DNA from: a phage
Sequence record: PX880100.1
DNA: 64,000 nucleotides
Direction: 5' to 3' (one strand)
Below are positions 2,150 to 42,488 of the stretch, piece after piece. A program made the position numbers and the translations under genes. Each line of letters starts with the position of its first letter. The first letter of the stretch is position 1. A model generated the notes under the pieces. That model searched no databases. It saw nothing but the letters and a program-made list of their open reading frames with translations, and was not told the DNA's origin.

Positions 2150-2782
2150 ATGACACAAGCTGCTATTGACTATAACAAGTTAAAATCAGCACCCGTTCAT
2201 TTAGATGCTTATATTAAATCTATTGATAGCGAATCCAAAGAGGGCGTTGTAAAAATCCGTGGATTCGCTAATACAATTAGTAAAGATCGCGCTGGTGATG
2301 TAATTCCGGCTTCTGCATGGAAAACATCTAATGCACTTACTAACTATATGAAAAACCCGATTATTCTTTTCGGACACGATCATCGTCGTCCAATCGGTAA
2401 GTGTATTGATCTTAACCCTACTGAAATGGGTCTTGAAATTGAATGTGAGATCTATGAAAGTTCTGACCCAGCTATCTTTTCACTAATTAAAAACGGTGTA
2501 CTGAAAACTTTTAGTATCGGATTCCGCTGCCTAGACGCAGAATGGGATGAAGCTACTGATATATTTATTATTAAAGATTTAGAACTATACGAAGTTTCGG
2601 TAGTTTCTGTACCTTGTAATCAGGACTCAACGTTCAATCTCGCTAAGAGCATGAATGGTCATGATTATACTGAATGGCGTAAATCTTTTACTGCAATAAG
2701 TTCTAAAGCTGTCCCAGCTCAAGAACGTAATCTTTCTGAACTAGAAAAACTTGCGATAGCTTTAGGCTACGTTAAAGAATAA
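2150..2782 (+). CDS. prohead maturation protease (T5 pb11-like, 210 aa)
   Basis: Directly upstream of the major capsid gene; same length as the T5 head protease; HK97-family-like GHDHRRPIGK segment. Confidence 0.75.
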   Translation: MTQAAIDYNKLKSAPVHLDAYIKSIDSESKEGVVKIRGFANTISKDRAGDVIPASAWKTSNALTNYMKNPIILFGHDHRRPIGKCIDLNPTEMGLEIECEIYESSDPAIFSLIKNGVLKTFSIGFRCLDAEWDEATDIFIIKDLELYEVSVVSVPCNQDSTFNLAKSMNGHDYTEWRKSFTAISSKAVPAQERNLSELEKLAIALGYVKE

Positions 2783-2799
2783 CGGAGAATTATTTAAAA

Positions 2800-4176
2800 A
2801 TGACTATTGATATTAATAAGCTGAAAGAAGAACTTGGTCTGGGTGATCTGGCTAAATCTCTGGAAGGTCTGACCGCTGCTCAGAAAGCTCAGGAAGCTGA
2901 ACGTATGCGTAAAGAGCAGGAAGAAAAAGAACTGGCTCGTATGAATGACCTGGTTTCTAAAGCTGTTGGTGAAGACCGTAAGCGTCTGGAAGAGGCTCTG
3001 GATCTGGTTAAGTCCCTGGATGAGAAATCTAAGAAGAGCGCAGAACTGTTTGCACAAACTGTAGAAAAACAACAGGAAACTATTGTTGGTCTTCAAGACG
3101 AAATCAAATCTCTGTTAACAGCTCGTGAAGGTCGTTCCTTCGTTGGTGATAGTGTTGCTAAAGCACTGTACGGTACTCAGGAAAACTTTGAAGACGAAGT
3201 AGAAAAACTGGTTCTGTTGTCTTACGTAATGGAAAAAGGTGTATTCGAAACCGAACACGGTCAAAAACACCTGAAAGCAGTGAATCAGTCTTCTTCTGTA
3301 GAAGTTTCTAGTGAAAGCTATGAAACTATTTTCTCTCAGCGTATTATCCGTGACCTGCAGAAAGAGCTGGTAGTTGGCGCACTGTTCGAAGAACTGCCGA
3401 TGTCCAGTAAGATTCTTACTATGCTGGTTGAACCGGATGCTGGTAAAGCTACTTGGGTTGCTGCTTCTACTTATGGTACTGATGCAACTACTGGTGATGA
3501 AGTTAAAGGTGCTCTTAAAGAAATCCACTTCAGTACTTACAAACTGGCTGCTAAGTCCTTCATTACTGATGAAACTGAAGAAGATGCAATCTTCTCCCTG
3601 CTGCCACTGCTTCGTAAGCGTCTAATTGAAGCACACGCTGTTTCTATCGAAGAAGCCTTCATGACTGGTGATGGTTCCGGTAAGCCGAAAGGTCTGCTGA
3701 CTCTTGCTAGTGAAGATAGTGCTAAAGTTATTACTGAAGCTAAAGCTGATGGTTCCGTACTGGTAACTGCTAAAACTATCTCTAAACTGCGTCGTAAACT
3801 GGGCCGTCATGGTCTGAAACTGTCCAAACTGGTACTGATCGTATCTATGGATGCTTACTACGATCTGCTGGAAGATGAAGAATGGCAGGATGTTGCCCAA
3901 GTTGGTAATGATGCTGTTAAACTGCAGGGTCAGGTTGGTCGTATTTATGGTCTGCCGGTTGTAGTTTCTGAATACTTCCCAGCTAAAGCTACTTCTGCAG
4001 AGTTCGCAGTTATTGTTTATAAAGATAACTTCGTAATGCCACGTCAGCGCGCTGTTACTGTTGAACGTGAGCGCCAAGCTGGTAAACAGCGTGACGCATA
4101 CTACGTTACTCAGCGTGTTAACCTGCAACGTTACTTTGCAAATGGCGTTGTATCTGGTGCTTACGCTGCATCTTAA
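2800..4176 (+). CDS. major capsid protein precursor (T5 pb8-like, 458 aa) with N-terminal coiled-coil scaffold-like domain
   Basis: 458 aa as in T5 pb8; charged coiled-coil N-terminal region (EELGLGDLAKSLEGLTAAQKAQEAERMRKEQEEKELAR) typical of a fused scaffolding domain; strongly host-optimised codons (ctg, cgt, ggt); followed by a strong terminator. Confidence 0.9.
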   Translation: MTIDINKLKEELGLGDLAKSLEGLTAAQKAQEAERMRKEQEEKELARMNDLVSKAVGEDRKRLEEALDLVKSLDEKSKKSAELFAQTVEKQQETIVGLQDEIKSLLTAREGRSFVGDSVAKALYGTQENFEDEVEKLVLLSYVMEKGVFETEHGQKHLKAVNQSSSVEVSSESYETIFSQRIIRDLQKELVVGALFEELPMSSKILTMLVEPDAGKATWVAASTYGTDATTGDEVKGALKEIHFSTYKLAAKSFITDETEEDAIFSLLPLLRKRLIEAHAVSIEEAFMTGDGSGKPKGLLTLASEDSAKVITEAKADGSVLVTAKTISKLRRKLGRHGLKLSKLVLIVSMDAYYDLLEDEEWQDVAQVGNDAVKLQGQVGRIYGLPVVVSEYFPAKATSAEFAVIVYKDNFVMPRQRAVTVERERQAGKQRDAYYVTQRVNLQRYFANGVVSGAYAAS

Positions 4177-5518: not shown

Positions 5519-6004
5519 ATGGATCATAGAACAAGTATTGCACAAGCTCTGGTTGACCGTATATCTAAACAGTTGGATGGTTCTCAACCTGACGAATATT
5601 TTAATAACCTATATGGAAACGTTTCTCGTCAAACTTATAAATTTGAGGAAATACGAGAGTTTCCTTATGTGGCAGTTCATATCGGAACTGAAACTGGGCA
5701 GTATCTTCCTTCGGGCCAACAGTGGATGTTTTTAGAACTTCCAATCCTGGTGTACGATAAAGAGAAAACAGACATTCAAGAGCAACTTGAAAAACTCGTA
5801 GCGGATATAAAAACCGTTATTGACACAGGTGGAAATTTAGAATATACTGTTAGTAAACCTAATGGATCGACCTTCCCATGTGAGGCAACTGATATGATCA
5901 TTACATCAGTTAGTACAGATGAGGGTCTACTGGCCCCATATGGTTTAGCAGAAATAAATGTAACAGTGAGGTATCAGCCTCCACGTAGGTCACTTCGCAG
6001 ATAA
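5519..6004 (+). CDS. tail terminator protein (161 aa, putative, T5 p142-like)
   Basis: Immediately upstream of the tail tube gene; length consistent with the T5 tail terminator as I recall it. Confidence 0.4.
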   Translation: MDHRTSIAQALVDRISKQLDGSQPDEYFNNLYGNVSRQTYKFEEIREFPYVAVHIGTETGQYLPSGQQWMFLELPILVYDKEKTDIQEQLEKLVADIKTVIDTGGNLEYTVSKPNGSTFPCEATDMIITSVSTDEGLLAPYGLAEINVTVRYQPPRRSLRR

Positions 6005-38022: not shown

Positions 38023-38790
38023 TTATTCAGCAGCCGCAGCTTTTGCATCCAGTTTAGCACGCTTAGCGGCACCATCATAGTCCTTAGCAACCAGACCGCG
38101 ACGAGACAGCATAGATTTAACACCGCGCTCAGACTTACCAGTTTTCTCAGCGATCTCAGCAACAGTCATGTTAACCAGATCCAGACCTTCTAACAGATCT
38201 TCACGAGTTTTAGCACTTGAAGTTTCCTGTACCGGCATAGCAGCGATACGACCTTCACGAAGTAGGCTCAGAGCTTTACCACGGATCTGCTTGATATTAC
38301 GACCGAAGTGAGCAGCGATAGCTTCAATAGTAGCACCAGCAACAACCTGATTAACAAAATCAGTTTCTTCATCCGGAGTGAAGGAACGAACAGCAGCAGC
38401 TTTTTCAGTTGGCTTAACAGAAGCGGTCATTTCCAGACTCAGGATCTTACCCTGTACCTGTTTAGCACCGAACTGACCACCAGCTACAGCAGCAGCGATT
38501 TCAGCATAGGTATACTGACCAGCATGAGCGTTCAGGAAATCAACCAGTTCAGCTTCCTGCTCAGGAGTCCACGGGGATTTCTGCACTTCGTTAGCTTTTT
38601 GTACTTCAAAACCTTCTTTACGCAGTTTAGAGCCAACAGAGCGAGCAGTAACATCTTTGCCAGTTTCAGCAGCCAGTTCAGCAGCAATAGCAGCTACTTG
38701 TTCTTGAGAGATTACAGAAACACCCAGAGCAGTGGCTTTTGCTTTCAGAGACTCGGTTACACCTTCTACGTTCCAGTTCAGTTTAGACAT
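38023..38790 (-). CDS. putative DNA-binding protein with repeated helix-rich modules (255 aa, T5 D5 position)
   Basis: Three to four repeats of a ~30 aa Ala/Lys-rich module (e.g. MTVAEIAEKTGKSERGVKSMLSRRGL); host-optimised codon usage; a related module occurs in ORF 41699-42109. Confidence 0.4.
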   Translation of the reverse strand: MSKLNWNVEGVTESLKAKATALGVSVISQEQVAAIAAELAAETGKDVTARSVGSKLRKEGFEVQKANEVQKSPWTPEQEAELVDFLNAHAGQYTYAEIAAAVAGGQFGAKQVQGKILSLEMTASVKPTEKAAAVRSFTPDEETDFVNQVVAGATIEAIAAHFGRNIKQIRGKALSLLREGRIAAMPVQETSSAKTREDLLEGLDLVNMTVAEIAEKTGKSERGVKSMLSRRGLVAKDYDGAAKRAKLDAKAAAAE

Positions 38791-39553
38791 TATTATTTTT
38801 CTCCAATAGTTCTTTAATCGACAGGATTTCTATCCCATTCGTTTCGGCTTTCTTATAAGATGAGGAAGAACGTTTTGATTCATCCTCACAGATTAGGTAT
38901 TTGACGTCTTTGGTAACGGATTTCTTAACCGTATATCCTAGACCTTCTAAATAGTTTGTTGCATCCGTTCGATTTGCAAAATCTTGCAAAGATCCGGTAA
39001 TACATACCGCGATTCCATTTGGCTGGGCAACTAAATCATCAGTAACGACGGTTTTAGCTTTAGCACCAGTTGAGAATTTCCACGGTAGTTCGATAACATC
39101 CTTGCCTTGTGGGGAATTTAGCCAGGCTTTATAATTTTCTCCAGCCTTGCCGTCAGCCTTCACATCGTGGAAGCTAGTGCAATTTTGGGATAATTTCTTT
39201 GCTGCAACCTCTCCAATTAGAGGGATTCCTAAAGAACCGAGAACTGAACCAAAGTCAATGTCTCCGCGAACTTTAGTATTTAATTCGCTAATTAACTTAG
39301 CGGCAACCTTGCTACCCACGGCTCTAACCAAATCTTCTTCGGTTAGGTAAAATAGTTCTGAAATCTTCGTCAGCTCCAGCTTCTCAATAGTTTTCGGGCC
39401 AAAGCCCTTTAACTTCATTTTTGTACAGAAGTTCTCAATTAACTTACTTGATTGCGCTGAACAGTTGGACTTATTACGACAGAATAATTGTCCGTTGACA
39501 AGATCTAGCTTAGAACCACAAGAGGGACATTGTGTTGGAATTTCGATTTTCAT
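38783..39553 (-). CDS. ligB: NAD-dependent DNA ligase, C-terminal subunit (Zn finger, HhH, BRCT-like)
   Basis: CPSCGSKLDLVNGQLFCRN zinc-finger motif followed by helix-hairpin-helix-like region; start moved to ATG 39553 with RBS AAGGAAG. Confidence 0.75.
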   Translation of the reverse strand: MKIEIPTQCPSCGSKLDLVNGQLFCRNKSNCSAQSSKLIENFCTKMKLKGFGPKTIEKLELTKISELFYLTEEDLVRAVGSKVAAKLISELNTKVRGDIDFGSVLGSLGIPLIGEVAAKKLSQNCTSFHDVKADGKAGENYKAWLNSPQGKDVIELPWKFSTGAKAKTVVTDDLVAQPNGIAVCITGSLQDFANRTDATNYLEGLGYTVKKSVTKDVKYLICEDESKRSSSSYKKAETNGIEILSIKELLEKNNNV

Positions 39554-39583
39554 CAAATTTCTTCCTTATCAATTTATATAGAT

Positions 39584-39612
39584 ATTATAGCAAGTATTTA
39601 AGCATTTAGCAA
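39584..39612 (-). promoter_or_regulatory. sigma70-type promoter between the two ligase genes
   Basis: Minus strand: TTGCTA, 17-bp spacer, TATAAT. Confidence 0.55.
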
Positions 39613-39676
39613 CTACAATTTTAACTAACTTTGCTTACCCTCGCCATAACTTTCTATCCCTCAACTGAATGATAAT

Positions 39677-39705
39677 AGTATATACCTAAGCGGCGAAAAT
39701 GTCAA
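39677..39705 (-). promoter_or_regulatory. second promoter between the two ligase genes
   Basis: Minus strand: TTGACA, 17-bp spacer, TATACT. Confidence 0.45.
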
Positions 39706-39755
39706 TAACCACTTTATAATTCCGATATGGTAGATGGGTAGCAAAGGGTTATGTA

Positions 39756-40730
39756 TTAATCGTATACTCGTTCTACTATGCATGGGATTACACCACCAGC
39801 ACGAATCACTCGAATCTGGCAACCGATCTCTAGATCAAGAGAGTTAATATAATCAACGTTATTAAGAGTCGCTTTAACAATTGTAGCATCATCAATAATT
39901 ACTGGTTCAAAATAACCTACTGGAGTTACTTTACCAGAAGCCCCTACCTGCCATTCAACTTTAGTAAGAGTTGTAATCTCGCCTTCTTCATCCTCTTTAA
40001 TGGCGAATGCTCCACGAGGGAATTTATTAGTCCAGCCTTCACGGAAGAATTTGTTGTTGTCATTAATACGAACAACTTTACCGTCCGTCGGAATCCATTT
40101 AAAAAAGGAACGCACATTAACAACTGTTAAGAAGTTCTCATTCTCTAGCCAAAGCATATCTTTTAAATATGCTTCTGTAATACCTACAGATTCAGCAGAA
40201 CACTGGATACCGTATGCAACGAAGATTAAGCCACCTTCCCCGATACGTTGTACGAAATCATCGCTATCTTTGAGGTTAATAGCACCAGAGGCAAAGTTAC
40301 GTTTATTTTCTACTTCTTTTGTAATTAGAACTTCACCAGTGATTTGAGTAGGTACTTTTTGGGAAATCTTTTTAGGGATGTTCAGCAATCTTACGTTGCT
40401 TGTGACATCATTTCCCAGAATACCGTTACCACGAGTTAATGCTTGAACAAATTCACCGTTAATATATAATAGAGAAATTGCACAACCATCTAACTTATCT
40501 GTTTCTACCTGACCTAAAGGATTAAATGGTGGTTTATCCCCACGATTATAATAAACTTTCTGTAAAGAATACATACGGTACAGATGTGGAATATCACCCT
40601 TAGGCCCGATCTCTTCTTCTAATGGGAAGCGTTTTACCAGGCAATCATACTCCTCATCAGAGATTAAAGACATGCCTTGATAATATGCTTCTTGACAACG
40701 CTTAATAAAGCCTTTTACATTATTCATCAT
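39756..40730 (-). CDS. ligA: NAD-dependent DNA ligase, N-terminal adenylation subunit (324 aa)
   Basis: KxDG adenylation motif (ETDKLDGCAISLLY) and OB-fold region; separate ORF from the C-terminal subunit, with about 200 bp of promoter-containing spacer between them. Confidence 0.8.
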   Translation of the reverse strand: MMNNVKGFIKRCQEAYYQGMSLISDEEYDCLVKRFPLEEEIGPKGDIPHLYRMYSLQKVYYNRGDKPPFNPLGQVETDKLDGCAISLLYINGEFVQALTRGNGILGNDVTSNVRLLNIPKKISQKVPTQITGEVLITKEVENKRNFASGAINLKDSDDFVQRIGEGGLIFVAYGIQCSAESVGITEAYLKDMLWLENENFLTVVNVRSFFKWIPTDGKVVRINDNNKFFREGWTNKFPRGAFAIKEDEEGEITTLTKVEWQVGASGKVTPVGYFEPVIIDDATIVKATLNNVDYINSLDLEIGCQIRVIRAGGVIPCIVERVYD

Positions 40731-40920
40731 CGGCGATTTCCATCTTGAGTTCTTTATTATATTGTGTAACCATATCCATCAAATCAGCAGATTCTTTCAG
40801 AAACGAATCTTTGTACGCCTTTTGATTTACTGTGCCTATGCTATCTTGATAATTAATACGTGCTGTGGAAAGTAGATTAAGTTTTGCTTGAATCTTGGGA
40901 AGTGTTACTGTCATAGCCAT
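40720..40920 (-). CDS. hypothetical protein (66 aa)
   Basis: ATG at 40920 preceded by RBS GAGAGGA and the promoter at 40950-40978; overlaps the ligA start. Confidence 0.35.
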   Translation of the reverse strand: MAMTVTLPKIQAKLNLLSTARINYQDSIGTVNQKAYKDSFLKESADLMDMVTQYNKELKMEIADDE

Positions 40921-40949
40921 GATTGATCCTCTCATTAATTTATATAAAT

Positions 40950-40978
40950 ATTATATAACAAAACTGAGTTGAAAGCAA
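40950..40978 (-). promoter_or_regulatory. sigma70-type promoter
   Basis: Minus strand: TTGCTT, 17-bp spacer, TATAAT, then leader ATTTATATAAATTAATGAGAGGA. Confidence 0.6.
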
Positions 40979-40987
40979 ATACATTTA

Positions 40988-41021
40988 TAAAGAAAAAGCC
41001 AAGAACTAGGCATTCTTGGCT
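40988..41021 (-). terminator. rho-independent terminator at the 3' end of the PC4-like gene
   Basis: 9-bp stem AGCCAAGAA/TTCTTGGCT overlapping the stop codon, followed on the minus strand by TTTTTCTTT. Confidence 0.6.
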
Positions 41022-41314
41022 TTTAGTTCTTCAGCTCGTTTCTGTACTTCATGTAAAACCTCAGATTCACTAAGAATCTGTGTAAACGCATAGAAAAGCT
41101 GTGATGTTGTTTCTAGGGTGTAAGGAAAAGAGAAGCCAGATTTCGTTGGAAACCATTCATCATTAATATCAAGAAGCCAGTAACGAATACCCATGTATAG
41201 ATTCCCACGAAATTCAGATACTGTTAATCTTACTTGTTCCCCCTCCTTCTCCCAAAGTATGATGGACTGGTCATCAACGTGTCCTTCATAGTTTTGATTT
41301 ACCTGTTCGCTCAT
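41006..41314 (-). CDS. PC4/Sub1-like ssDNA-binding protein (102 aa)
   Basis: Central segment ILWEKEGEQVRLTVSEFRGNLYMGIRYWLLDINDEWFPTKSGFSFP resembles the PC4 coactivator ssDNA-binding fold; a PC4-like protein has been described in phage T5. Confidence 0.5.
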   Translation of the reverse strand: MSEQVNQNYEGHVDDQSIILWEKEGEQVRLTVSEFRGNLYMGIRYWLLDINDEWFPTKSGFSFPYTLETTSQLFYAFTQILSESEVLHEVQKRAEELKAKNA

Positions 41315-41698: not shown

Positions 41699-42109
41699 TT
41701 ACTTAGTGATAGCTCGGATTGCTTCTGCCAGATGAGCAGCCGCTTTACCGGTCAGTTTGTCGATAATTGCATCATCCAGAAAATCTGGTGCTAGGCCAGC
41801 ATCAGAGAATGCTGAACGAAGGTCGGCATGAGCTTGGGCTTTGGAAGTACGAGAACCGCCAGAAGCTTTTTCTCCAGTAGATGCGCTAGATTTAGAAGCA
41901 GAGCCAGCAGCTTTCTTGATATACAAACCTGCTTTAGTCAGCTTCATACGAAAACCGTTCGGAGTTACACCATTTTCCTGGGCAATTTCGCTAACAATTT
42001 CCATGCTAACACCCGGACGTTCATCCTCTGGGAATTGCTCCATACGAGCAACGTATTCGGAAGACATTTTTTCGAACAGTTCATCAGTCCACTGAGTTGG
42101 AGTAGTCAT
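41699..42109 (-). CDS. putative DNA-binding protein (136 aa) sharing a module with ORF 38023-38790
   Basis: Segments VSMEIVSEIAQENGVTPNGFRMKLTKAGL and DAIIDKLTGKAAAHLAEAIRAI resemble the repeated module of the 255 aa protein; first gene after the promoter at 42167-42195. Confidence 0.35.
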   Translation of the reverse strand: MTTPTQWTDELFEKMSSEYVARMEQFPEDERPGVSMEIVSEIAQENGVTPNGFRMKLTKAGLYIKKAAGSASKSSASTGEKASGGSRTSKAQAHADLRSAFSDAGLAPDFLDDAIIDKLTGKAAAHLAEAIRAITK

Positions 42110-42166
42110 ATTTTATATTTCCTTAATTAAGAATTAAACAGAATAGTTCTTTCAAACTATGAGAAT

Positions 42167-42195
42167 ATTATATCAAGAATTATAGGATTAAGCAA
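42167..42195 (-). promoter_or_regulatory. sigma70-type promoter
   Basis: Minus strand: TTGCTT, 17-bp spacer, TATAAT. Confidence 0.6.
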
Positions 42196-42212: not shown

Positions 42213-42488
42213 TTACTCCACCAGGCCAACAGCGAGCATATCATCAATGCTGGCAATCTCCCAATCGTCGGCAATAGCTTCGCATACTGTTAATGTAACA
42301 ATCTCACTATAGGGATAATTACCAGCTACCCAGGTATGTTGGGTAACTACATCCGAATCAGTATCCAAAGTTAATAATACTAAACCGTTATTATCGTTAT
42401 TCCAACTTTTACGATACACGGTTTTTGTTTCACCATCTTTGAGCAAATCTGTTAGTTTACTCACGGCGTTTTCCTTTTTCTTTATCAA
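42213..42488 (-). CDS. hypothetical protein (83-91 aa)
   Basis: Track start is TTG; an in-frame GTG at 42464 with RBS AAGGAAA looks more plausible. Confidence 0.3.
   Translation of the reverse strand: MIKKKENAVSKLTDLLKDGETKTVYRKSWNNDNNGLVLLTLDTDSDVVTQHTWVAGNYPYSEIVTLTVCEAIADDWEIASIDDMLAVGLVE

Follow-up and report, generated by a model that had tools for sequence, protein, structure and literature searches.

A two-gene NAD+-dependent DNA ligase in a T5-like phage and the conserved, promoter-bearing spacer between its halves

Why does a phage encode its DNA ligase as two genes, and what occupies the roughly 200 bp that separate them? The question is posed by a stretch of 64,000 nucleotides from sequence record PX880100.1 (the whole stretch is called the window below), for which an earlier note had proposed an NAD-dependent ligase split in two, as in T5, with two promoter-like elements in the spacer. 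The window derives from a T5-like phage: 474 phage records matched the region in a search of a phage collection and, among the matches listed, the annotation was either ligA/ligB or two DNA ligase genes. The genes and the spacer lie as follows.

38023..38790, minus strand: gene for a D5-like DNA-binding protein (ORF; HTH and sigma-70 region 4 hits)
38783..39553, minus strand: ligB, 256 aa, with Cys4 zinc finger, HhH and BRCT (ORF, Pfam, 9hu3 chain B)
39554-39755: spacer between ligA and ligB, 202 nt, made up of P1, leader, P2 and ribosome-binding site
39756..40730, minus strand: ligA, 324 aa, with adenylation and OB domains (ORF list, Pfam PF01653 and PF03120)

The adenylation domain and OB fold of the LigA family were both found in ligA, which matched DNA_ligase_aden (PF01653, E = 2e-23) and, with residues 253-322, DNA_ligase_OB (PF03120, E = 4e-22). 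The KxDG lysine motif is present as KLDG (residues 79-82) and lines up with the corresponding motif region in many structures of LigA. Alignment and sequence reading place residues 4-60, a candidate domain Ia for NAD+/NMN recognition, against the N terminus of LigA from Providencia phage PR1 (9hu3_A), with an AYY...SDEEYD-type motif; for the start of ligA, the T5 annotation uses the second ATG. The zinc finger, HhH and BRCT of the family are in ligB: BRCT (PF00533) was matched at E = 9e-8 (32.7 bits, the cut-off being 21.3), the HhH matches were weak, just under the Pfam cut-offs, and the four cysteines (C9, C12, C25 and C31) show no variation among nine diverse LigB proteins. Although the ORF list opens ligB at a TTG (38783..39556, minus strand, 257 aa), the ATG at 39553 that the earlier note had used is the likelier start, preceded by an AAGGAAG ribosome-binding site. 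Both products were matched over their full length by a two-chain structure (ligA by PDB 9hu3 chain A, E = 3e-103; ligB by chain B, E = 4e-82), chain B being 100% identical to PR1 LigB. Against single-chain E. coli LigA (2owo), ligA residues 215-321 align with residues 284-390 and ligB residues 3-122 with residues 402-529, and only about six residues of the E. coli linker are missing between the two termini. Where the LigA family has a single polypeptide, the window has two ORFs that differ in reading frame and are separated by 202 nt; as in the LigA and LigB of Demerecviridae, the break falls in the linker between OB fold and zinc finger and both halves are of full length. The ORFs, the Pfam domains and the 9hu3 matches bear out a split ligase of the T5 kind, and it is very probable that the product is the two-subunit NAD+-dependent enzyme that T5-like phages (Demerecviridae) typically have, with the spacer as a transcription-unit boundary.

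An ancestral single-chain LigA would have been broken in the short linker between OB fold and zinc finger, leaving the NAD-binding, adenylation and OB domains to LigA and the DNA-binding zinc-finger, HhH and BRCT domains to LigB. Presumably both polypeptides come together in a single enzyme, on the model of the two-chain PR1 ligase structure; for the present phage this assembly is suggested by analogy, and the 9hu3 chains themselves probably form an active heterodimer, to judge from their deposition in one entry.

Neither the two-gene ligase nor the two spacer promoters is a new discovery, as both are known from T5. The split of the T5 ligase is treated as a known discovery in PMC1684257, its citations go back to the 2005 T5 genome paper, and the genes are called subunits A and B in PMC3632103. 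T5 ligA/ligB (dnlj1/dnlj2; AY587007) agree with the window in genes, order and the 202-nt length of the spacer, which differs at two positions, and T5P36, T5P37 and ‘repeat b copy 5’ are all marked within it in the T5 record; the window differs in having one more ORF, of 71 aa, after the upstream promoter and before ligA. The ligase of Providencia phage vB_PreS_PR1 (PDB 9hu3 and 9i5i) consists of two chains with the same break point at about 53-56% amino-acid identity, and its spacer holds P1 and P2 in the same registers; the PR1 record, however, annotates a terminator directly after ligA, where none was predicted in the window. Single-chain LigAs (E. coli 2owo and the fused enzymes of Clostridium phage c-st, CST032, and Pseudoalteromonas phage KB12-38) share the window's domain set and its order (Ia, a candidate only in the window, then adenylation, OB, zinc finger, HhH, BRCT), but form one polypeptide of about 650-670 aa, whereas the window's ligase is cut in the OB/zinc-finger linker and has a promoter for each half.

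Within the spacer, the following elements were distinguished, in the direction of transcription.

39706..39755, minus strand: linker from the ligA stop to P1, the sole variable stretch of the spacer; relatives carry their inserted genes here
39705..39677, minus strand: putative promoter P1 (T5P36), TTGACA-17-TATACT (scan, 11 of 12 positions; AY587007)
39613..39676, minus strand: inter-promoter leader, with a purine block, a mini-ORF and a 5' hairpin arm pairing with the P2 region (alignment, folding)
39657-39662, minus strand: purine block GAGGGA (SD-like), in the leader
39621-39647, minus strand: mini-ORF MARVSKVS*, in the leader
39612..39584, minus strand: putative promoter P2 (T5P37), TTGCTA-17-TGcTATAAT (scan, 10 of 12 positions plus the extended -10 TG; AY587007)
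39568..39592, minus strand: core of ‘repeat b copy 5’, the -10 and initial transcribed sequence (AY587007 repeat_region)
39561..39567, minus strand: ribosome-binding site AAGGAAG of ligB, 7 nt 5' of the ATG (sequence reading)

A promoter scan of the region reported exactly two sites in the spacer, P1 and P2, both on the coding strand and both with the hexamers and 17-nt spacing of T5 early sigma-70 promoters; strong sigma-70 promoters stand ahead of T5 early and late genes (PMC7472727). Hexamers by themselves did not rise above chance (3.5 kb held 7 promoter-like sites, and shuffles gave 8.2), and the case for real promoters therefore rests on position and strand, near-identity to T5, a register kept across the family and low divergence of the spacer. 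With the scan match, the near-identity to T5 and the family-wide retention combined, the two promoter-like elements claimed for the spacer stand. Transcription is predicted to start near 39670 from P1, giving a leader of about 117 nt, and near 39577 from P2, giving one of about 24 nt. P2 resembles the classic (Bujard-type) T5 early promoters in its -35 (TTGCTA), its extended -10 and its downstream ...ATAAATTGA, and shares the motif conserved in their discriminator and initial transcribed region (ATATT... / ...ATAAATTGA), whereas P1 has a consensus -35 but no such motif, its -10 being followed by ATTATCATTCAG in place of the conserved downstream element. The ‘ATATT’ discriminator of T5 early promoters is described in PMC7472727; in this region of P2 one base differs, the window reading ATC and T5 ATT. 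The window holds ten sites with the downstream motif ...ATAAATTGA; the ‘repeat b’ core has two copies only in the 64 kb (39568..39592 and 40934-40958). Both P1 and P2 probably fire in vivo. We know of no experimental mapping of either. The T5 record AY587007 itself labels T5P36 and T5P37 ‘putative’ early promoters, a literature search for transcript 5' ends and for RNA-seq or proteomic values of ligA and ligB yielded none, and ligase entries are absent from the supplements of one Tequintavirus RNA-seq/proteomics paper. Promoter function of P1 and P2 alone leaves the two-promoter arrangement and the nearly invariant segment between them unexplained.

The arrangement was followed through 96 related loci, including 54 IMG/VR loci of a second scan. 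The ligase was split in all 96, and no fused ligase was found among them (an automatic ‘fused’ flag on one locus, L094, proved false). A promoter match whose -10 ended 20-40 nt before ligB was present throughout the first set of loci and in 48 of the 54 IMG/VR loci; these matches are in the register of P2, include relatives at about 40% identity and, in divergent lineages, have -10 ends 24-32 nt before ligB, often with 11-12 of 12 positions matching. P1 is kept in T5-like, Klebsiella, Pectobacterium, Providencia, Proteus-like and Vibrio phages, where it lies 116-126 nt ahead of ligB, and P1 with its leader of about 117 nt is confined to a clade of cultured phages, all lineages of which keep the P1 and P2 registers regardless of any insert after ligA. 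In the most divergent relatives the gap between ligA and ligB (55-118 nt) consists of one promoter and a 5' UTR. Spacer divergence was 1.2%, more than 10-fold below the 14-16% at third codon positions, the spacer forms the longest low-diversity trough in 7.6 kb, and most of its 18 variable sites are found in the ~32 nt that come first after the ligA stop. Purifying selection on the spacer is strong, and it ranks among the most constrained sequences of the locus; fission of the ligase with a promoter of its own is a fixed, family-wide design and no accident of one genome. The nearest relatives of the window's ligA and ligB differ, and the possibility was considered that ligA and ligB modules had been joined by recombination at the spacer; this was rejected because ligB nt 1-300 co-vary with the 3' half of ligA (rho = 0.64) and nt 301-600 do not (rho = 0.14), which puts the breakpoint inside ligB.

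That the split reflects decay of a pseudogenized ligase, or that the ORFs are rejoined into one protein by read-through, frameshifting or splicing, is extremely improbable: nothing beyond the existence of two ORFs speaks for it, both halves are intact and conserved in every locus, the two frames differ with in-frame stops in the spacer, no intron signature was found there with Rfam, the PR1 enzyme was deposited as two separate chains, and the two termini run right up to the E. coli linker, lacking only some six residues, which leaves no room for intein halves. The earlier note had further suggested that the spacer is the remnant of an excised mobile element. In its favor, the junction of the ligA stop and P1 is a recurrent insertion site: one close relative (L032) carries a GIY-YIG endonuclease gene there (Pfam E = 1e-5), a smaug ORF is inserted at the same point (the ATGs of both inserts overlap the ligA stop), and other relatives carry NADAR, a gene annotated as DprA-like, or small ORFs. 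The inserts nevertheless vary in kind, are specific to lineages and without exception lie upstream of P1, which makes them later arrivals in a gap that already existed, and the most divergent lineages have the split with a minimal, promoter-only gap. At the relatives' insertion point the window has only ~26 nt, without endonuclease-derived sequence. No Rfam intron or other RNA family matched the spacer at E ≤ 1, and no gene-strand ORF of at least 40 aa lies wholly inside the spacer; the single ORF listed at this place, of 53 aa from a TTG (39661-39822, minus strand), overlaps the 3' end of ligA. As P1, leader, P2 and ribosome-binding site account for the spacer completely, and selection on it is the opposite of decay, the remnant proposal is not supported. 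We consider a scar of the intron or homing-endonuclease element that first split the gene very unlikely, and return to the two-subunit ligase with the spacer as a transcription-unit boundary.

The boundary reading also draws on the flanks of the two genes. Upstream of ligA are three further features.

40720..40935, minus strand: 71-aa ORF (phrog_8267; PHROGs E = 3e-42), between the ligA-unit promoter and ligA
40934..40985, minus strand: putative ligA-unit promoter (equivalent of T5P35, ‘repeat b copy 4’), a near-duplicate of P2 (alignment, pattern search, T5 annotation)
40994..41024, minus strand: predicted intrinsic terminator, a 13-bp stem followed by a T run (terminator scan)

The terminator lies immediately upstream of the ligA-unit promoter and marks the upstream boundary of the unit; the 71-aa ORF overlaps the start of ligA, and T5, which lacks it, has 88 nt in its place. 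In this reading ligA would close an upstream unit driven by an early promoter that is nearly a copy of P2, and the tandem sigma-70 promoters P1 and P2 would start a second unit of ligB and a translationally coupled D5. In the window the start of D5 and the stop of ligB overlap by 8 nt, which places D5 in the transcription unit of ligB; the order ligA - ligB - D5 holds in the window and in annotated relatives, and 52 of the 54 loci of the second scan have a D5 homologue immediately downstream of ligB. The terminator scan predicted no terminator in the window's spacer, including directly after ligA. Read-through would therefore add to initiation at P1 and P2, and ligB/D5 mRNA is probably equal to or above ligA mRNA in vivo. 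Since P1 and P2 appear real and are conserved, it is plausible that ligB can in principle be transcribed independently of ligA; the promoter unit includes D5, however, so an excess of the C-terminal half is only one possible purpose.

The T5 protein D5 is an abundant early DNA-binding protein required for late gene expression. The promoters may accordingly serve chiefly to supply this dsDNA-binding regulator, having become fixed in the OB/zinc-finger linker of a ligase gene just upstream of D5, with fission of the ligase a by-product and any excess of LigB incidental. The adjacency of ligB and D5, often with stop/start overlap, in the second-scan loci and the window, the promoter-plus-5' UTR gap of the most divergent lineages and the HTH and sigma-70 region 4-like hits in D5 are consistent with this, although a promoter for D5 could instead have arisen 3' of an intact ligase; a supply of D5 is compatible with the two-subunit reading, from which it differs only in the product that selection benefits, and we regard it as possible but somewhat unlikely. 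A different purpose is suggested by the leader. P1, the conserved leader and a hairpin over P2 could together form a dedicated cis-regulatory device that sets the timing or amount of LigB/D5 against LigA, either as an RNA leader (5' stabilizer, RNase III site or attenuator) or as a palindromic operator. The segment between the promoters is almost invariant across 28 haplotypes, the distance from P1 to P2 stays within 86-97 nt from genus to genus, the P1 leader of the window folds at a dG of -32 kcal/mol (z = -5.4), and ten lineages, which are not independent of one another, showed a hairpin tendency near the -35 of P2 with differing arms (Fisher P = 3e-5; a control region gave 0.13). Taken singly, however, three to five of these lineages were non-significant, among them the window with its inner hairpin, single-sequence leader folds were significant in some lineages only, RNAalifold recovered no consensus structure of the P1 leader across six genera (0 pairs), A-tract/T-tract palindromes of UP-like elements can yield such hairpins, and P1 is altogether absent from the most divergent relatives. 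A conserved leader peptide after GAGGGA was also considered and rejected, as alignment showed the mini-ORF to be conserved neither in sequence nor in presence. We judge the dedicated device unlikely. The promoter-early stem-loop (PeSL) cassettes of T4-type phages, reportedly described by Arbiol et al. in 2010, likewise combine a repeated early-promoter module and a stem-loop at junctions that small accessory ORFs enter and leave; the likeness is one of analogy only, with no homology or sign of mobility in the window, where inserts lie upstream of P1 and not between hairpin and P2.

By itself, the original observation rediscovers a documented feature of T5-like phages and is of small importance. 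The comparative results are of modest value, in that they give ground for asking about the stoichiometry and timing of LigA : LigB : D5 in T5 and single out a defined element of ~64 nt between the promoters. In its fullest and quite doubtful form, the nearly invariant stretch of about 240 nt from P1 through the ligB start would be a cis-regulatory device that uncouples the supply of LigB/D5 from that of LigA, and the ligase would be regulated by the availability of its subunits. Were this true, one possible purpose would be that the characteristic single-strand nicks of T5 DNA are left unsealed late in infection; alternatively, LigB may have a LigA-independent role together with D5.

Two separate open reading frames (ORFs) on the minus strand encode the halves of the NAD-dependent DNA ligase, and the 202-nt spacer between them carries two promoter-like elements, which the promoter scan recovered exactly as an earlier note on this DNA had described them:

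39756–40730, minus strand: ligA, N-terminal half of the ligase, 324 aa (ORF listing)
38783–39553, minus strand: ligB, C-terminal half, 256 aa counted from ATG (the ORF lister begins one codon upstream, at TTG)
39705–39677, minus strand: promoter-like element P1, TTGACA-17-TATACT (promoter scan)
39612–39584, minus strand: promoter-like element P2, TTGCTA-17-TATAAT with an extended −10 TG (promoter scan)

Pfam placed the NAD-dependent ligase adenylation domain (PF01653, E = 2 × 10−23) and the ligase OB fold (PF03120, E = 4 × 10−22) in the ligA product, and a BRCT domain (E = 9 × 10−8) with weak HhH matches in the ligB product, four cysteines of which are invariant across nine diverse homologues. 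LigA residues 215–321 aligned with residues 284–390 of E. coli LigA (2owo) and LigB residues 3–122 with residues 402–529; because the alignments end and begin there, the chain is cut in the short linker joining OB fold to zinc finger. Only about six linker residues are unaccounted for, leaving no space for intein halves. The different reading frames of the two ORFs, in-frame stops in the spacer and the lack of any Rfam match there speak against rejoining into a single protein by read-through or splicing.

That a split ligase is known in T5, as the earlier note stated, was borne out. Megablast-level matches to the region came from 474 phage records, nearly all T5-like phages of Escherichia, Salmonella or Klebsiella, and among the matches listed the ORFs are annotated either as subunits A and B of DNA ligase or as a pair of DNA ligase genes. 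Compared with T5, the spacer shows two differing positions, and where P1 and P2 lie the T5 record (AY587007) has the entries “putative early promoter T5P36” and “T5P37”, with a 25-bp “repeat b copy 5” within P37. PMC1684257 cites the split T5 ligase as a discovery already known from the 2005 genome paper. LigA and LigB each match one chain of PDB 9hu3/9i5i end to end (E = 3 × 10−103 and 4 × 10−82; entered as “DNA ligase (NAD(+))” and “DNA ligase subunit B”), and chain B has the very sequence of LigB from Providencia phage vB_PreS_PR1 (100% identity; also Demerecviridae), so a structure of the family's two-chain enzyme already exists; a literature search did not find the paper describing the deposit.

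The split was present in every Demerecviridae representative examined (T5-like, Klebsiella, Pectobacterium My1, Providencia PR1, Proteus-like and several Vibrio lineages). A second search of IMG/VR, using a LigB profile, gave 80 loci (L044–L123); in the 54 analyzed (L070–L123, identity down to ∼40%) the ligase was split without exception, the single automatic “fused” flag proving false. In phages further removed, such as Clostridium phage c-st and Pseudoalteromonas phage KB12-38, one gene of ∼650 aa encodes the ligase.

By themselves, hexamer matches were no more frequent than chance predicts for DNA this rich in AT (7 vs. 8.2 expected); it is position that argues for P1 and P2 as conserved features rather than chance hexamers. 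In every cultured lineage the −10 of P1 ends 116–126 nt, and that of P2 29–31 nt, ahead of the ligB start, registers kept even at ∼50% protein identity and regardless of cargo inserted after ligA. A promoter match with its −10 ending 20–40 nt before ligB was found in 48 of the 54 loci. In divergent environmental lineages the entire gap is only 55–118 nt, with a single promoter, at the P2 register, that often matches consensus at 11–12 of 12 positions (e.g., TTGACA-17-TATAAT). Because these lineages keep it, the promoter immediately before ligB looks ancestral to the split clade, and P1 with its ∼117-nt leader looks like an addition in the clade containing the cultured phages. P2 is of the T5 early type, with a conserved downstream ...ATAAATTGA motif; the discriminator motif of T5 early promoters is noted in PMC7472727. 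The P2 core occurs at only one further place in the 64-kb window, within the promoter that precedes the ligA unit (“repeat b” copy 4 in the T5 annotation); the two ligase halves thus carry matched early promoters. Strong promoter matches also lie at 5820 (+), 43222 (−) and 60294 (+), with downstream sequences that we take to resemble P_D/E20, P_N25 and P_H207, classic T5 promoters used in expression vectors.

The spacer is under strong constraint. Among 28 distinct close haplotypes its mean pairwise divergence was 1.2%, against 15.9 and 14.1% at third codon positions, and 2.6 and 8.2% at positions 1+2, of ligA and ligB, respectively; most of its 18 variable sites fall within the first ∼32 nt past the ligA stop. 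A sliding-window scan across the 7.6-kb locus placed the longest low-diversity trough at 39720–39481 (π ≤ 0.007 vs. a median of 0.045); shorter ones coincide with a further promoter region and with the ligB/D5 (38731–38850) and D5/helicase (38041–38100) junctions on the minus strand; these junctions are near-invariant (π ≤ 0.005), consistent with constraint from overlapping stop/start signals and translational coupling. Separately, a hypervariable segment at 42240–42450 (−; π up to 0.36 among close relatives), within or around a 91-aa ORF (42213–42488), adjoins an almost invariant promoter-like trough (42031–42180).

The 64 nt separating P1 and P2 are nearly invariant and the P1–P2 distance stays at 86–97 nt, neither of which is accounted for by promoter function alone. 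The P1 leader of the window folds far better than shuffles (ΔG −32 kcal/mol, z −5.4), the upstream sequence pairing with the P2 −10 region in a long predicted stem. A hairpin tendency with differing arm sequences was found in 66 nt around the P2 −35 across ten lineages, which are not independent (combined P = 3 × 10−5; control region at P1, P = 0.13); several lineages were individually not significant, no consensus structure could be aligned, and A-tract/T-tract palindromes could contribute. In every aligned lineage P1 is succeeded by a purine block, GAGGGA; the mini-ORF behind this block is not conserved. We treat the leader fold and hairpin as a lead, not a finding.

The ligA–ligB gap is a recurrent insertion site. 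Genes found after ligA were:

L032 (close relative), 2684–3340: GIY-YIG endonuclease gene, between ligA and P1
L038 (Proteus-like phage), 2653–3309: NADAR-domain protein gene, between ligA and P1
Vibrio phage Chester: three genes between ligA and P1, one annotated DprA-like (Pfam hit sub-threshold only)
smaug, L040 and Vibrio 70E37-2: small ORFs between ligA and P1, function unassigned
Coordinates for the last two groups: L003, 1724–2942; L002, 2058–2252; L040, 3134–3316; L004, 1559–2019

Wherever aligned or scanned, inserts sit past the ligA stop and ahead of P1. Those of L032 and smaug end ∼25 nt upstream of the P1 −35, and their ATG overlaps the ligA stop, by which the insert joins the ligA unit. 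The ligA 3′ end of L032 is more diverged beside the endonuclease gene. The earlier note had proposed that the spacer could be the remnant of an excised mobile element, to be sought by comparing relatives for intron or endonuclease remnants. The comparison yielded the GIY-YIG gene of L032, but just ∼26 nt lie at the insertion point in the window, with nothing endonuclease-like, and the spacer has no Rfam match; because divergent lineages also have promoter-only gaps and constraint is strong, the spacer is not a decaying scar. The inserts are instead later, lineage-specific arrivals into a pre-existing gap. Between the ligA-unit promoter and ligA lies a 71-aa ORF (40720–40935, −; phrog_8267) that shares 11 nt with the start of ligA; the corresponding stretch of T5 is just 88 nt long, marking the ORF as a presence/absence accessory gene.

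Downstream, the gene for a D5-like DNA-binding protein overlaps the ligB stop by 8 nt in the window, and 52 of 54 loci carry a D5 homologue behind ligB, −14 to +27 nt from it (the other two run off contigs), which makes promoter–ligB–D5 the conserved unit. No terminator was predicted between ligA and ligB by the terminator scan; ligB and D5 would also be fed by P1 and presumably receive read-through from ligA. From this arrangement we infer ligB/D5 mRNA equal to or above that of ligA; a literature search found no expression data bearing on the ratio. The suggestion that LigB is made independently, perhaps in excess, is thus plausible, and D5 may just as likely be the beneficiary of the promoters. 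The D5-like protein (38023–38790, −) gave several weak-to-moderate HTH hits (best, sigma-70 region 4_2, E = 1 × 10−6, residues 204–230), which would fit a DNA-binding transcription-regulator role.

In the window, the nearest relatives of ligA are not those of ligB. Recombination within the conserved spacer was considered, but distance correlations put the breakpoint inside ligB (39000–39210, −), near a diversity peak (π = 0.14) and an indel of 9 nt that falls between the HhH and BRCT regions. LigB genes come in two allelic types, ∼1–3% or ∼14–17% divergent from the window, distributed independently of ligA relatedness. Short GenBank records including OR848168.1, OR847187.1 and OR848135.1 carry the T5-like ligase region (98–99.6% identity) under the labels “Listeria phage LM 4-14-1” or “LM 4-11-1”, and Campylobacter-labelled records also occur among the matches; such records probably name the wrong host, or else derive from mixed samples.

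What the earlier note observed is correct and its reading holds in part, but a split ligase with internal promoters is an already known feature. The comparative additions made here are incremental: a universal internal promoter, a ligB–D5 unit, extreme constraint on the spacer and an insertion hotspot upstream of P1.
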